Positions 8,951 through 22,760 of a stretch of DNA of 38,411 nt are shown one piece after another. The position numbers were made by a program, and so were the translations under genes. Below the pieces are notes generated by a model. That model was not told the origin of the DNA. It saw only the letters and a program-made list of their open reading frames with translations, and made no database searches. Position 1 is the first letter of the stretch. Each line of letters begins with the position of its first letter. Origin of the DNA: Armatimonadia bacterium. Lineage in GTDB: Bacteria > Armatimonadota > Zipacnadia > Zipacnadales > UBA11051. The stretch spans positions 1 through 38,411 of the forward strand of contig JBDKRC010000171.1 of the NCBI GenBank assembly GCA_039683575.1, in the 5' to 3' direction.

Positions 8951-9694
8951 CTACCCCAACCCTCCCAGTTCATAGGCCACCAGCGCACAAGCCACGATTG
9001 CCGCCGTCTCCGTGCGCAGTATCCTGTTGCCAAGCGAAACCGCCGTCAGCCCCGCCTCCCGCCCCGTCTGCCCCTCTTCGGGCGTCAGGCCACCCTCCGG
9101 CCCCACAAACACCGCCACCTGCCGCCCCTCCCGCGCCCCCTCTAGCGCCTCGCGCAGTCCATGCCCCTGCTCGCCCGCCAGCGTCTCATCGAGCAGCACG
9201 CCCGCCTGCCCGCTCGCCCGCCACAGTGCCAGCGCCTCCGCCCATGTGACTGGCTCGCTTACCTCCGGCGGCGCCACGCCCCCGCTCTGCTCGGCGGCTT
9301 CCACTGCAATCTTCTGCCACCGCTCCCGCTTTCCCTCCACCTCCCGCGCGTCCAGCCGCACAATCGTCCGCGCGGTGATCACCGGCACGATGCGCGTTAC
9401 GCCTAGTTCGGTACACTTCTGGATGACCAACGGCCAGCGCTTGCCCTTGGGCAGGCCCTGATACAGCGTCACCTCGACTACCGGCCCCCCGCGCCTGGGC
9501 AGCTCTGCCACAATCTCAGCCCCCTCCGCCACCAGCCTCGCACGGTACTCAACCCCGGCCGCCGTGAACGCGACGAACTCCGCCCCCGCCCCCAGCCGCA
9601 GCACCACGCGCAGGTAATGCTCCACCTCCTCAGGCAGGCGCACCACCGGCGGCTCAACACATTCGCGGGGAAGATAGACACGAGGGTTGATCAT
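8951..9694 (-). CDS. rsmE: 16S rRNA m3U1498 methyltransferase RsmE
   Basis: HYLRVVLRL, QKCTELGV, EAAEQS, VGPEGGL and LGNRILRTETA motifs; start is ATG 9694 or 9703. Confidence 0.95.
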   Translation of the reverse strand: MINPRVYLPRECVEPPVVRLPEEVEHYLRVVLRLGAGAEFVAFTAAGVEYRARLVAEGAEIVAELPRRGGPVVEVTLYQGLPKGKRWPLVIQKCTELGVTRIVPVITARTIVRLDAREVEGKRERWQKIAVEAAEQSGGVAPPEVSEPVTWAEALALWRASGQAGVLLDETLAGEQGHGLREALEGAREGRQVAVFVGPEGGLTPEEGQTGREAGLTAVSLGNRILRTETAAIVACALVAYELGGLG

Positions 9695-9701
9695 CCCGCG
9701 C

Positions 9702-9730
9702 ATTGTAGCCTCCGCTCCTCCTGCGCGCAA
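9702..9730 (-). promoter_or_regulatory. Sigma70-type promoter for rsmE
   Basis: TTGCGC-17 nt-TACAAT, followed 7 nt later by ATG 9694. Confidence 0.55.
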
Positions 9731-9752
9731 CCCTGCCGGCAGGCGCGACACG

Positions 9753-9779
9753 AAAAAGCCGGAGTCCCATGACTCCGGC
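9753..9779 (-). terminator. Intrinsic terminator after prepilin-like gene
   Basis: GCCGGAGTC/GACTCCGGC stem plus U5 on minus strand. Confidence 0.8.
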
Positions 9780-9802
9780 CTATCGGACTACATCCAGCGA
9801 TC

Positions 9803-10432
9803 CTAGTTCGCATCCCAGATAGTGGTTCCGGCGCCCTTCATGGCCTGGGCGCCCAGCCACTTGGAGTGGCCGTCGACGAAGGCATGGTTGCTGCCGCCAT
9901 TGTGCCGGAAGGCCGCCCCCGGGCTCGGATTGGCGGGGTCCCAACCGTTGTAGGTGTTGGTGTCAAAGACGGGATTGCTGCCGCTGACGCGCCCGCCAGC
10001 GAACGAATAGCCCGCGTTCGAATCGCTTAGCATTACCGTCTCCGCCGGGCTCTGGATCGCGCCCAGCGCCGTACCGCCAACCTGCGTACCGGCCGTGCCC
10101 CACGAATAGCCAAGGGTGTCCATGTTGTAGCCATAGTCAGACGAGGTGCCGTTCTTGCTGGGGCAGATCAGGATCTGCGCGCTCTTGATATACGGCTGGC
10201 AGGCTACATACCACCAGGTCCCCGGTGGGTTCAGATACGCGAACATGAACTTCTCATCGTAGTCCTGCACATACGACAGCACTGCGAGAGCCAACTGCTT
10301 GGTGTTCGACAGACAGGACGACTGGCGCGCCTTCTCGCGCGCTTTGGCGAAGACCGGGAACAGGATTGCCGCCAGAATCGCGATGATCGCGATGACAACC
10401 AACAACTCGATTAGCGTAAAGCCGCGTCTCAT
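9803..10432 (-). CDS. Prepilin-type N-terminal methylation / DUF1559 / H-X9-DG protein, 209 aa
   Basis: [39 protein letters not shown] and [22 protein letters not shown]; start reassigned to 10432. Confidence 0.92.
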
Positions 10433-10590
10433 TGTGCCGACCTCCTTGATAAGACTGTCGGTGTATGATTCGGCGCAACCTGTGGGTCTTCCTGCCGTGG
10501 GTTCCCGAAGACTTTGGGAACGGAAGGGTAGAGAAACGTGAACCGGCGGGCCCCTTTCCTCGCCCGCCTCCCACTCTCCCCCCAAACACC

Positions 10591-10618
10591 AAAAAGCCGG
10601 AGTCAACTGACTCCGGCT
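10591..10618 (-). terminator. Terminator-like hairpin, near-identical to 9753-9779
   Basis: GCCGGAGTCA/TGACTCCGGC stem plus U5 on minus strand. Confidence 0.7.
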
Positions 10619-10653
10619 ACAGAATTGCTGTGTTTCCTATGAACACCTACCAC

Positions 10654-10875
10654 AAAAAAAGAAAGCAGCCGGCCTGGGGTGTGGGAGAGGGGGACCCAGG
10701 CCGGCTGCATTTCCGCTCCGCCAGAGTGTGTAGAAAACTTTGGGCGGCGGGGCTTCAGATCAGCTTCTAGCTTGGGCGCAAGTCGAGGGGGGCAGAGGAA
10801 GCTAGAAGCTAATTGAGGGCATGACTTCGAGTGTAGCTATGTCTAGTTTCTGCAATAAAAGCTACACAACCCTAT
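10654..10875 (-). ncRNA. Candidate ~220-nt small RNA with four stem-loops and C-rich loops
   Basis: Promoter immediately upstream; perfect stems of 8 bp (10831-38/10860-67), 12 bp (10762-73/10799-810) and 14 bp (10665-78/10695-708), one imperfect stem (10713-50); ends in UUUCUUUUUUU; no credible ORF. Confidence 0.65.
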
Positions 10876-10881
10876 ATATGG

Positions 10882-10910
10882 ATACTAAACCCTCACGCAT
10901 GCCATGTCAA
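10882..10910 (-). promoter_or_regulatory. Sigma70-type promoter
   Basis: TTGACA-17 nt-TAGTAT on minus strand. Confidence 0.75.
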
Positions 10911-11104
10911 GCCCCTTTTCCCACTTTGCCCCAACTATTTCCCAGGCCGCTGTCTGCCCGACCAAGCCGGACTTTGCCACCATCGAAGAAAGTTAGAGCT
11001 GCCTTTCTTCCCCTTGTTCAAGGGTTATCACACCATGAAGCGGAACACTACGCGCCGACGAAGGTCAACTCTTGCTGTCCACAACCACCTGCCCGAGGTA
11101 TGCC

Positions 11105-13537
11105 ATGTTGCGCAGAGCCCTGCTGCTGGCACTCACGCTCCTCCTCGCCCTCCCCGCTTTCGCCGACTGGCGCGATGACCACGGCCAGCCGGACTGGGCC
11201 CGCCGCGGCTTCTGCCAGTGGGGCCATGGCGCCAACGTCAAGGGCCGCATCAAGTGGGCGGGCAACGGCTTCGGCGTGGACGTCCCCAATGCCCACCTGC
11301 TGCTCGACTGCGGCCGCAACCTGATGCAAACGATCAGCTACCTCGACAAGGAGGCCCGCCGTATCGGCGAGACCGAGGGCCAGATCAAGCGGCAGCCGTA
11401 CATCTGCAGCAAGACCATCTGGTGGCGCAGCGAGTTCCCCAAGGCCCCGCAGCTTGAGCGCTGCACCATCGTCAAGCCAGACGGCAGCCGCGTGCTCCTG
11501 TACAACAACCCCGAGCGCTATGGCGGGTGCTACAGCAGTCCGATCTGGCTCGAGTACATGAAGACCCGCGTGGATAGCCTCATGGCCGACAAGGCCTACG
11601 GCACGGTGCACTCGATCTTCTTCGACAATTGCAGCAACTACGACTGCTACTGTGCCGACTGCCGCGCGGGCTTCCGCAAGTTCACCCGCGACAAGTTCGG
11701 CGTCGAGATGGACCTGGCCGCGCCCGACAAAGCACCCAACTTCGCCTTCGCCAAACAGCTCTATGATGCCGACACCGCCGTCGCCTTCTTCAAAGCGATC
11801 AAGGTCTACCTCGATGAGAAGTACGGCCCCGGCATCCTGATCTCGCCCAACATCGGTGTCGCCTATGGGTGGAGCGACTACCTCGTCAACAAGGGCGCGA
11901 CCGACCTCGTCTTCATCGAAGAGGGCTTCACCATGCCCCCGACCGACAGCACGGTCCTCAAGTACAAGACGGGCCTCGCGTCCTCCCATGGCAAGACGAC
12001 CGGGCAGCTACTCGGCCTCGCCGAATCCCTGCGCCGCGTGCGCGCCCTCGCCCTTGATAAGGGCAACGAACTCGGCATCCTCGAGTCCTTCGTCTACCCC
12101 GAGGAGCACATGCTGGCCCTCGCCGAAGCCGCCGCAACCGGTGGCACCGACTGCCTCTCCTTCGCCCTCCGCGAGCAGAAGATCTCAGTCAGCGACGCCC
12201 CGTACCAGGTGCAGATGAAGCAGGCCATCACCCGCTATACCAACTTCCAGCGCCAGCACCTTGACCTGTGGGATCGGGCGCAGCCGGGCGCGAAGGTCGC
12301 CGTCGTGCATGGCATCATGACCCAGCTACTCGAGCGCAGCCCGACTGTCTACCGCAACACCTGCAACACCCTCGGCGCAGCGGGCATCCCGTATGAGGTT
12401 CTCATCGAAGAAGACCTCACTGCCGAGCAACTCGCCCAATACCAACTTGTCATCATGCCGCGGGTCACGCTACTCGACCCGCAGCGCGCGGCGGCGCTGG
12501 CGACGTGGGTGAAAGCTGGTGGCTCGCTCGCCGTCGTGTCCGACCTGGCGACCAGGGACGAGCTTTGCCGCGCCTATGCGCCCGAACAACTGCCCGAGGT
12601 GGCGAAGCTTCCGGCGGGTATGGCAGCGCTGGGGAAGGGGCGGACGTGGAAGCCCGCGGAGGGGTTTGAGGTGATGGCCAAGGCTGCCCTGGTGAAGCAA
12701 CTGGAGGACCTGACGGGCGGGCTGGAGTGCCGCCTGCAGACCGACAGCCCGCGCGTCTTTGCCAATATCCTGAGGAGCGCAGACGGCAAGAGCCGGAGCG
12801 TTCACCTCGTCAATTCTGACGTCACATACGACCTGCCACCCTCGCCGGACCTGCGGGACGATGACGCCACGCCCGAGGCGCGAACTTACCTCGCCGAGAC
12901 GCAGACCTGGGCGCGCAAACGTCTGCTCGTCCCGGACCTCGCCGCGGTCAAGGGCTACTCGCTCAAGTTCTTCGGCGCGACCTGCGGCGCGGCGACCGAT
13001 GCCTTCTCGCTCGTGGTCTCGCTCAACGGTCAGGACCTGAAGACCTTCAGGGGGTCAACCCTGAACGAGTCCGGTTGGTTCGAGGTCCCGGTGCCGGAGG
13101 GCCTGCTCAAGCCCGTGAACGAGATCATCTTCCGCGCCACCGGCCAGCCGAGCATGCACCCCGACTGGTTTGCGATCAAGCTCGACACCAACGCCACGAC
13201 GACCCGCTCCTCATGGTCCACCGACGGCGGCAAGACGTGGAGCGAGAAGGACCTGTCCCCCGACCCCGGCATACAGACCGGTGAGTACATGGTCCGCTTC
13301 GGCCCCACGAGCGACCCGGCGGCCGTCGCCAAGCCCGAAGACTTCATGGGTAAGCTGAAGGTCACCCCGGCGCGGAAGGTGCGGGTGAGGGTTCTTTCCG
13401 AAAATGCGGAATCGGGGCGGCTGATCAGCCCTGATGGCACCGAGCAGACTATCCAGCCACGCCGGGAAGGCAAGGTGGCGGTTTACGAGGTGCCGGAGGT
13501 CTATGTGTACTCGGTGCTGCTGCTACCGGAGAAGTGA
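11105..13537 (+). CDS. Secreted putative glycoside hydrolase-like protein (probable TIM barrel plus GH42-trimerisation/GATase-like domain), 810 aa
   Basis: Signal peptide (..PAFA-D); IFFDN..CYCADC..GFRKF metal-binding motif; [28 protein letters not shown] and HLVN motifs; SD GAGGT. Confidence 0.65.
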
Positions 13538-22115: not shown

Positions 22116-22760
22116 CTACAGGCCATTCACTGAGAAGTAACTCCCGTCCTTCAGTACTTGCCAAGTCATCCACTTAGCATGGCCATCCACGAAGCCGTAG
22201 TTGCCGCCGCCATTGTGTCTCTGGGAGAGGGTGAAACTGTCTCTGCGAGGATCGGGCATGTCGCATCCCATGCCGACCTGTTGATAGGGTGGCGTGTTCG
22301 CGTAGGCGTCGGCGTCGCCTATCAGAATGCATCGAGATGGATTGGCTACCAGCCCCAAGGGTACGGCGTAGTTGGCTTGTTGCCCGCCGTACTCCGGGCC
22401 ACCATAGCCGAAGTTGCGGCCGTTGAATGAGTAATTTGTCCCGCCCATGAAGTTCCCACTGACCCACGTCGATATGTCCCAATTGGGGGCGTCGGGACAC
22501 CTGAAGACTTGTGTGTTCTTGACGTAGGGACTGATGAAGGAGAACCAGTAGTACACCCCGTAACGTTGCGACGGAAGCGTTTCGTCGTAGTCCTGAGCAT
22601 AGCTTAGCGTGGCCACCATTAACTGCTTCACATTGCTCAGACATGACGCCTGCCTGGCCTTCTCCCGCGCCTTGGCAAACACCGGAAACAGTATCGCCGC
22701 CAGGATCGCGATGATCGCGATCACCACCAACAACTCGATCAGCGTGAAGCCGCGTCGCAT
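22116..22760 (-). CDS. Prepilin-type / DUF1559 / H-X9-DG protein, 214 aa
   Basis: [32 protein letters not shown]. Confidence 0.92.

Follow-up and report, generated by a model that had tools for sequence, protein, structure and literature searches.

What does the minus strand of this Armatimonadia contig encode between positions ~10654 and 10910, and what could the product do? The stretch carries a promoter (TTGACA-17-TAGTAT), four stem-loops and a U-rich tail. A first-pass annotation of the window (the whole 38,411-nt stretch of DNA analysed here) had read it as a complete non-coding transcription unit. All of these features are indeed present in the sequence, the unit is conserved in relatives, and RNA libraries hold contigs of just this stretch. 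We conclude, with a probability of about 95%, that 10654-10875 is a real non-coding RNA gene, transcribed on its own, and the founder of a new conserved family.

Armatimonadota are a little-studied phylum, common in soil, sludge and freshwater, with few cultured members. To our knowledge, no regulatory RNA of Armatimonadota has been described. Full-text searches for small or structured RNAs of the phylum turned up only unrelated work; motif catalogues published in supplements alone could hold the family.

The RNA gene, its promoter and its surroundings

The sigma-70-type promoter (10882-10910, minus strand), located by a consensus scan, has its -35 element TTGACA at 10910-10905, a 17-nt spacer and its -10 element TAGTAT at 10887-10882. 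An A-rich tract lies upstream, and 7-8 nt separate the -10 element from the start of the folded stretch. This is the sole promoter-like site within 9500-12000. Because shuffled sequence is expected to give 0.7 such sites in those 2.5 kb, the site alone is not above chance and the case rests on conservation. In the homologues the arrangement TTGACA-N17-TAnnnT recurs together with the upstream A tract: among 41 homologue rows the -35 element reads TTGACA in 35 and TTGACT or TTGACC in five, the remaining row having been picked wrongly. The promoter thus accompanies the RNA across its relatives and is of a near-consensus sigma-70 type throughout the order.

The RNA gene itself (10654-10875, minus strand) is about 215 nt long (~210-220 nt), as indicated by a full-length match of covariance model R1 (10653-10874) and by the RNA-library contigs. 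Its 5' end is predicted near 10875 and its 3' end within the U tract. The U-rich tail, read from the sequence at 10654-10664 (minus strand), follows the last hairpin, and the two together look like an intrinsic terminator; such tails are present in homologues of families f1 and f3 and missing from most members of f5. We found no conserved open reading frame in the stretch on reading the homologous sequences, and the stretch is single-copy in its own genome.

Downstream on the same strand lies a gene (9806-10432) for a protein with a prepilin-type N-methyl motif and a DUF1559 domain, followed by an RsmE-type RNA methyltransferase and a solute-binding protein. These assignments come from a Pfam scan of the RNA's four neighbours in the window. 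The divergent upstream gene (11105-13534, plus strand) encodes 810 residues with a signal-peptide-like N-terminus and matches no Pfam family. Between the RNA and the next gene, the sequence scan revealed a second terminator-like hairpin (10595-10618, minus strand), probably outside the RNA itself; this hairpin and ~160 nt separate the RNA from the next start. A near-identical terminator-like hairpin (CCGGAGTC..GACTCCGG) occurs at 9756-9781, also on the minus strand, so that the pair flanks the prepilin-like gene. The genome has no further copy, and the gene and its terminator may have been acquired or duplicated together, as a cassette. Elsewhere the surroundings are different: as far as open frames can be read, those flanking the RNA differ between the g1, g4 and f5 loci, that is, between genera and families.

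RNA sequencing runs that hold small shares of the 1201-nt stretch around the gene number 19, from 12 studies. We examined four of them, from three studies, and the contigs that fall on the RNA gene consist of the gene alone. A 211-nt contig matches 10702-10867 without a difference (depth 178.6) and bears adapter-like letters on both sides, which we take to be transposase adapter sequence, and a 195-nt contig matches 10691-10865, again without a difference (depth 613.8). Over their whole lengths, a 196-nt contig from another study (soil) covers 10669-10865 with five differences and one gap, and a 156-nt contig from a third study covers 10706-10861 with two differences. Such contigs give neither the strand, the exact ends nor the level of the RNA, depth being a poor measure of expression. 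In the four runs 10446-10650 and 10897-11400 are without contig cover, and an uncovered stretch proves nothing about read-through or DNA contamination. Separately, contigs from all four runs pile up at 10320-10430. They match the opening codons of the prepilin-like gene with 90-95% identity and then run into unrelated sequence; the match reflects a conserved N-terminal motif shared by the genes of many organisms.

Distribution, structure and identity of the family

Searches with blastn recovered the RNA stretch in its own genus, where all three other genomes have it, and in a second one, and its loop core in further genera and families. The extracted regions have in common the promoter, the motif GGGUUGU.UAG, the loop core, the helix of the third domain and the terminal hairpin. 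A pattern scan of 185,579 species genomes returned 20 loci. Fifteen of these hold the whole unit, most of them labelled Armatimonadota or Armatimonadia, two Candidatus Zipacnadia and one candidate division WS1; the other five are isolated chance matches in other phyla.

Two covariance models were used to extend this picture. R1, built from eight closely related sequences and their RNAalifold consensus, matches 19 of 19 collected members over their full length and none of four chance pattern matches, the fifth chance match being hit as a fragment (E 0.21). The shorter R2, which spans the second to the fourth domain and was built from 19 diverse members, has exactly one match in each of 52 of the 67 genomes of the order, including 29 of the 34 of high quality, and reaches all seven families (f1 14/15, f2 4/4, f3 1/1, f4 14/17, f5 6/7, f6 8/18, f7 4/4). 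The misses in f6, where the sequence is most divergent, may reflect low sensitivity rather than absence. In a sample of the phylum, R2 matched 10 of 11 other members of the order and none of 139 genomes outside it (two within the class, 137 beyond it). Among metagenome pattern matches, 26 of 33 are also R2 matches, 23 at full length and three cut by a contig end.

Two departures from the usual arrangement were seen. In four f7 homologues (L102, L111, L112 and L114) TTGACA abuts the conserved 5' motif (UUGUGCAG), and ~30 nt present in other families are missing; there, the rearrangement has affected the promoter or, alternatively, the RNA's 5' end. In one f4 genome (G028, contig C28, 19746-20783) the RNase P RNA gene follows ~380 nt downstream of the RNA gene, in the same orientation; in none of the other genomes with both positions recorded are the two neighbours.

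The minimum-energy fold of 10650-10875 (-84.4 kcal/mol, z = -5.15) consists of four consecutive hairpin domains, and none of 200 shuffled sequences folds as well. P1 (10817-10872, minus strand), defined by the fold and by invariant columns, has an outer helix GGGU/GCCC around an inner hairpin and carries the conserved 5' motif GGGUUGU.UAG and a conserved CUA.ACA.AGCU, neither of them C-rich. P2 (10755-10816, minus strand), defined by fold and covariation, is a long imperfect helix with a large conserved apical loop. The fold also gives P3 (10715-10753, minus strand), a CCGCC/GGCGG hairpin with a loop of ~25 nt, and P4 (10660-10714, minus strand), the long G+C-rich terminal hairpin.

Covariation was counted on model-based alignments (R1, then R2), since MAFFT misplaces strands between groups: the MAFFT alignments A1 and A2 misalign P1, P2 and P3, and their counts were replaced. 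In A9, the R2 alignment of 41 members, 86.5% of cells are paired compared with 67.4% in shuffles, and 34 of 36 pairs are changed on both sides. None of 500 shuffles reaches any of the measures, and slid partners are only 26-43% paired. The R1-based alignment A4 gives 92.5% paired cells compared with 77.2% in shuffles, with 28 of 42 pairs changed on both sides. A4 and A9 were fitted to the model structures, which favours these pair counts; a blind scan of all column pairs recovered the same helices and no others. By domain, P2 (helices 1 and 2 of A9) has 10 of 11 pairs changed on both sides and was also found by the blind scan, P3 has 8/8 (87.2% of cells paired) and P4 13/13 (93.4%). The assignment is least firm for P1. 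In A4, 89.5% of the cells of its outer helix are paired, with two of five pairs changed on both sides; by our reading this helix holds in f1 while the inner pairing varies among families. The first-pass annotation had named homologues and covariation as the check on its proposal, and both are found: 52 of 67 genomes of the order carry the RNA, and 34 of 36 pairs show compensatory changes, a result reached by 0/500 shuffles.

The family belongs to no known RNA family tested. A covariance-model search of the window with Rfam 15 gave zero matches at gathering scores, which agrees with the first-pass statement that this is not a known Rfam family. Within 10300-11200, at E up to 10, there are 15 weak, chance-level Rfam matches (the best, frnS, scores 28 bits where its cut-off is 60), none of them to a ribozyme or riboswitch family, and ARAGORN found no tRNA or tmRNA in the window. 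We also considered and rejected a replacement of a housekeeping RNA. The genome has 6S RNA, SRP RNA and tmRNA elsewhere, the 6S RNA (RF00013) being a regular one on another contig (66 bits). A search of this assembly (96% complete) for the bacterial type-A RNase P RNA (RF00010) found none, but 43 of the 67 genomes of the order have one, among them two of the three other genomes of the genus. The locus is therefore not a reduced RNase P RNA replacement, and the gap here is probably one of assembly or binning. With a covarying structure, a promoter and a presence in RNA libraries, the family, absent from Rfam 15, is ready for Rfam and for genome annotation.

C-rich loops and candidate functions

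Three unpaired C-rich motifs stand out. The loops that bear them, CCUCUGCCCCCCUCGACUUGCGCCC in P2 (~10798-10774) and UCCCCCUCUCCCACAC in P4 (10694-10679), are both unpaired in the minimum-energy fold, and across 41 members their C content is 44-45%. The first-pass description of two C-rich loops therefore holds, as the C-rich character is conserved across families. Motif 1, GCCCCCCU (10786-10793, minus strand), lies in the P2 apical loop, where 34 of the 41 aligned members have CC[C/U]CC. Most other families present the motif as the loop of a small inner hairpin, P2a, with the variants GCCCCCU, GACCCCCC and GCCUCCUU; the last, the canonical anti-Shine-Dalgarno core, is often carried in the P2a loop by f4 and f6. 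Motif 2, just 3' of motif 1, reads GCGCCC or GCACCC (..CCC), and 36 of the 41 members retain it. The motif is contained in GACUUGCGCCCA (10773-10784, minus strand), a 12-nt stretch on the 3' side of the P2 loop that is unchanged in all 19 sequences of A2, and the loop core around it was the first blastn match in other families. Motif 3, CUCCCAC in the P4 apical loop (10681-10687, minus strand), has a CCCC or CUCCC counterpart in the P4 loop of 34 of 41 members: CUCCCAC in f1 and (U)GCCCC in f2, f3, f4, f5 and f7, with most f6 members lacking it. The 41 members are kin, so these counts overstate their independence. The most divergent families retain precisely these three unpaired motifs.

Our analysis points, tentatively, to pairing with Shine-Dalgarno sites as the most likely mechanism. 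The RNA would act in trans, its C-rich loops pairing with the G-rich ribosome-binding sites of mRNAs and thereby blocking or modulating translation initiation and mRNA stability, possibly with help from Hfq. This is favoured because the three C-rich motifs survive, GGAGG is the commonest pentamer upstream of genes in this genome (1015 of 3997 crude gene calls), Hfq is encoded (59 bits), and the design resembles those of the RsaE/RoxS and cuckoo RNAs. Together with the Hfq gene, the RNA's own promoter and its terminator with a U tail are the traits of the Hfq-dependent, terminator-bearing small RNAs; Hfq binding is putative.

The first-pass annotation had already proposed an RNA of the RsaE/RoxS or cuckoo type that pairs with Shine-Dalgarno sites. 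Of that idea, the conserved unpaired C-rich loops stand, as does GCCUCCUU in some families. The target scan, in contrast, did not bear it out: a duplex scan of the two loops against the 3997 crudely called start regions of this one genome revealed nothing beyond base composition. The best duplexes (-42.9 and -30.5 kcal/mol) compare with -37.0 to -45.8 and -29.3 to -34.8 kcal/mol for 10 shuffled versions of each loop, and the top matches are G-rich stretches, many probably at mis-called starts. The best complementarity anywhere in the genome, 19 of 20 nt (E 0.26), lies away from any start and is not significant. Also against Shine-Dalgarno pairing, CCCCC pairs fully with GGGGG alone, a minority Shine-Dalgarno sequence found upstream in 183 of the 3997 calls, most f6 members lack the C-rich P4 loop, and the invariant unpaired sequence (the 12 nt of GACUUGCGCCCA plus the C run) far exceeds the length of a seed.

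These last features give weight to a serious rival, which we consider somewhat unlikely. The RNA could be a protein-binding one, a sequestering RNA or the scaffold of a ribonucleoprotein with a role like those of 6S, CsrB-type or Y RNAs; its synthesis would be constitutive and strong, and the invariant unpaired stretches would be protein sites. Long invariant stretches, and conserved ones that are not C-rich such as the 5' and P1 motifs, suggest protein binding or tertiary structure, of which they are more typical. The near-consensus promoter with its A tract, kept order-wide, would suggest from its sequence a constitutive high expression, unlike that of most stress-induced regulators. The depths of the RNA contigs (178.6 and 613.8) point the same way, as far as depth can measure expression, and so do the lack of a target signal above base composition and the single copy in 52 of 52 genomes with a match, as for housekeeping RNAs. 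On the other hand, no candidate partner protein has emerged and no gene is consistently adjacent. The RNA is without multiple repeats of one binding motif, unlike CsrB-type sponges, and a 6S RNA is already encoded elsewhere in the genome. What the most divergent families keep is exactly the C-rich, anti-Shine-Dalgarno-like motifs, which argues for RNA pairing.

A broader idea is more speculative. An order-wide, constitutive RNA at housekeeping level that displays two or three mimics of the 16S anti-Shine-Dalgarno tail on a rigid four-domain scaffold might be a global governor of initiation, competing with the ribosome at many sites, or the core of a novel ribonucleoprotein, rather than a regulator of a few targets. 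We regard this as unlikely.

It is improbable that the RNA is a structured molecule functional in its own right (such as a ribozyme, or a binder of a ligand or of the ribosome) whose loops make tertiary contacts, for example a GGGUUGU/UGCGCCC pseudoknot across P2. Its helices are well defined and its conserved unpaired nucleotides numerous. RNAalifold on A2 does propose this pairing of the 5' motif; each G-C pair holds in 17 of 19 sequences, and in one genome two U-to-C changes turn G-U pairs into G-C. The pairing shows no change on both sides, however, fails the blind scan at 85% paired and, by our reading of the sequences, breaks in f4, f6 and f7. Ribozyme and riboswitch families gave no match even at E up to 10, and there is no conserved neighbour gene for a riboswitch to control. 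The pseudoknot itself we rejected, as it lacks covariation and is absent from the blind scan.

It is very unlikely that the RNA regulates the translation of prepilin-like (N-methyl plus DUF1559) genes through a CCUCUCC/GGAGAGG pairing, as the first-pass annotation had suggested. The sites exist: GGAGAGG lies 11-17 nt upstream of the ATGs of three such genes (minus-strand starts at 22760, 23476 and 24253), the gene directly downstream of the RNA belongs to the same family, and ~156 gene starts in the genome carry a prepilin-type N-terminal motif (GFTLIELL). The match as such does not carry the claim, however. The window holds 14 copies of the heptamer where 8.8 are expected, a count reached by nine of 100 shuffles. 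The three genes are paralogues arranged in tandem; their 21-nt leaders are identical, as are their first 30 residues, so the three cases count as one. CCUCUCC (10690-10684) is not conserved outside the genus, where only the CUCCCAC/GCCCC core is kept, and the prepilin-like starts mostly stand behind an ordinary GGAGG. As a group, the 156 start regions pair no better with the loops than the background does, if anything slightly worse (Mann-Whitney p 0.87 and 0.98; means of -17.2 against -17.96 for the P2 loop and -10.62 against -11.49 for the P4 loop). Nor is the adjacency of RNA and prepilin-like gene conserved in other genomes.

A final reading would make the RNA a cis-acting leader or riboswitch that controls the downstream gene through P4 as a regulated terminator. 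This would fit the RNA's place upstream of a same-strand gene and the terminator-like hairpin at its end, but such a role is close to excluded because synteny is lacking, the downstream genes differing between genera and families. In addition, a second terminator and ~160 nt intervene before the next start, the P4 loop is conserved in a way that a plain expression platform does not need, and no Rfam riboswitch matches.

Comparison with known systems

In being single-copy, lineage-wide, prominent in RNA libraries and driven by a strong near-consensus promoter, the Armatimonadota RNA resembles 6S RNA and other abundant housekeeping RNAs. Unlike these, it is restricted to one order, and it differs from 6S RNA in folding into four separate hairpin domains rather than one long helix with a central bubble. 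The locus has no match to RF00013, and the genome already has 6S RNA (66 bits), SRP RNA and tmRNA, while relatives have RNase P RNA.

The cuckoo RNAs of Alphaproteobacteria (CcsR, NfeR, Rfam ar14) are closer in design, displaying an anti-Shine-Dalgarno-like C/U-rich motif in hairpin loops; in CcsR the motif CCUCCUCCC is present in each of two loops (PMC8034643). Some members of the Armatimonadota family likewise show GCCUCCUU in the P2a loop. However, the CCUCCUCCC nonamer was not found in the members we examined, which have only five-letter CC[C/U]CC cores. The Armatimonadota RNA is also single-copy rather than arranged in tandem arrays, is without an Rfam match and, unlike the CIN1 subgroup with its adjacent DUF1127, has no DUF1127 among its four neighbours in the Pfam scan of the window.

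RsaE/RoxS of Firmicutes (Rfam RF01820) is roughly 100-115 nt long. The Armatimonadota RNA is about twice that length and has four domains, a large P2 loop and long invariant stretches that are not C-rich. It comes from a different phylum and is without sequence or model similarity to RsaE, which is absent from the matches at E<=10 in 10300-11200. Both have their own promoter and terminator and several conserved C-rich regions in loops or single strands; in RsaE/RoxS, multiple C-rich regions pair with G-rich Shine-Dalgarno sequences (PMC4409812), and for the Armatimonadota RNA a trans action is what we infer. Both also extend over a large taxon, an unusual breadth of conservation among base-pairing small RNAs, and a putative base-pairing RNA conserved across a whole order is a rare case. 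If the C-rich loops do not target ribosome-binding sites, the long invariant loops point to another partner. If they do, this design, so like a known kind, would have had an independent origin in a third distant lineage, after Firmicutes and Alphaproteobacteria.
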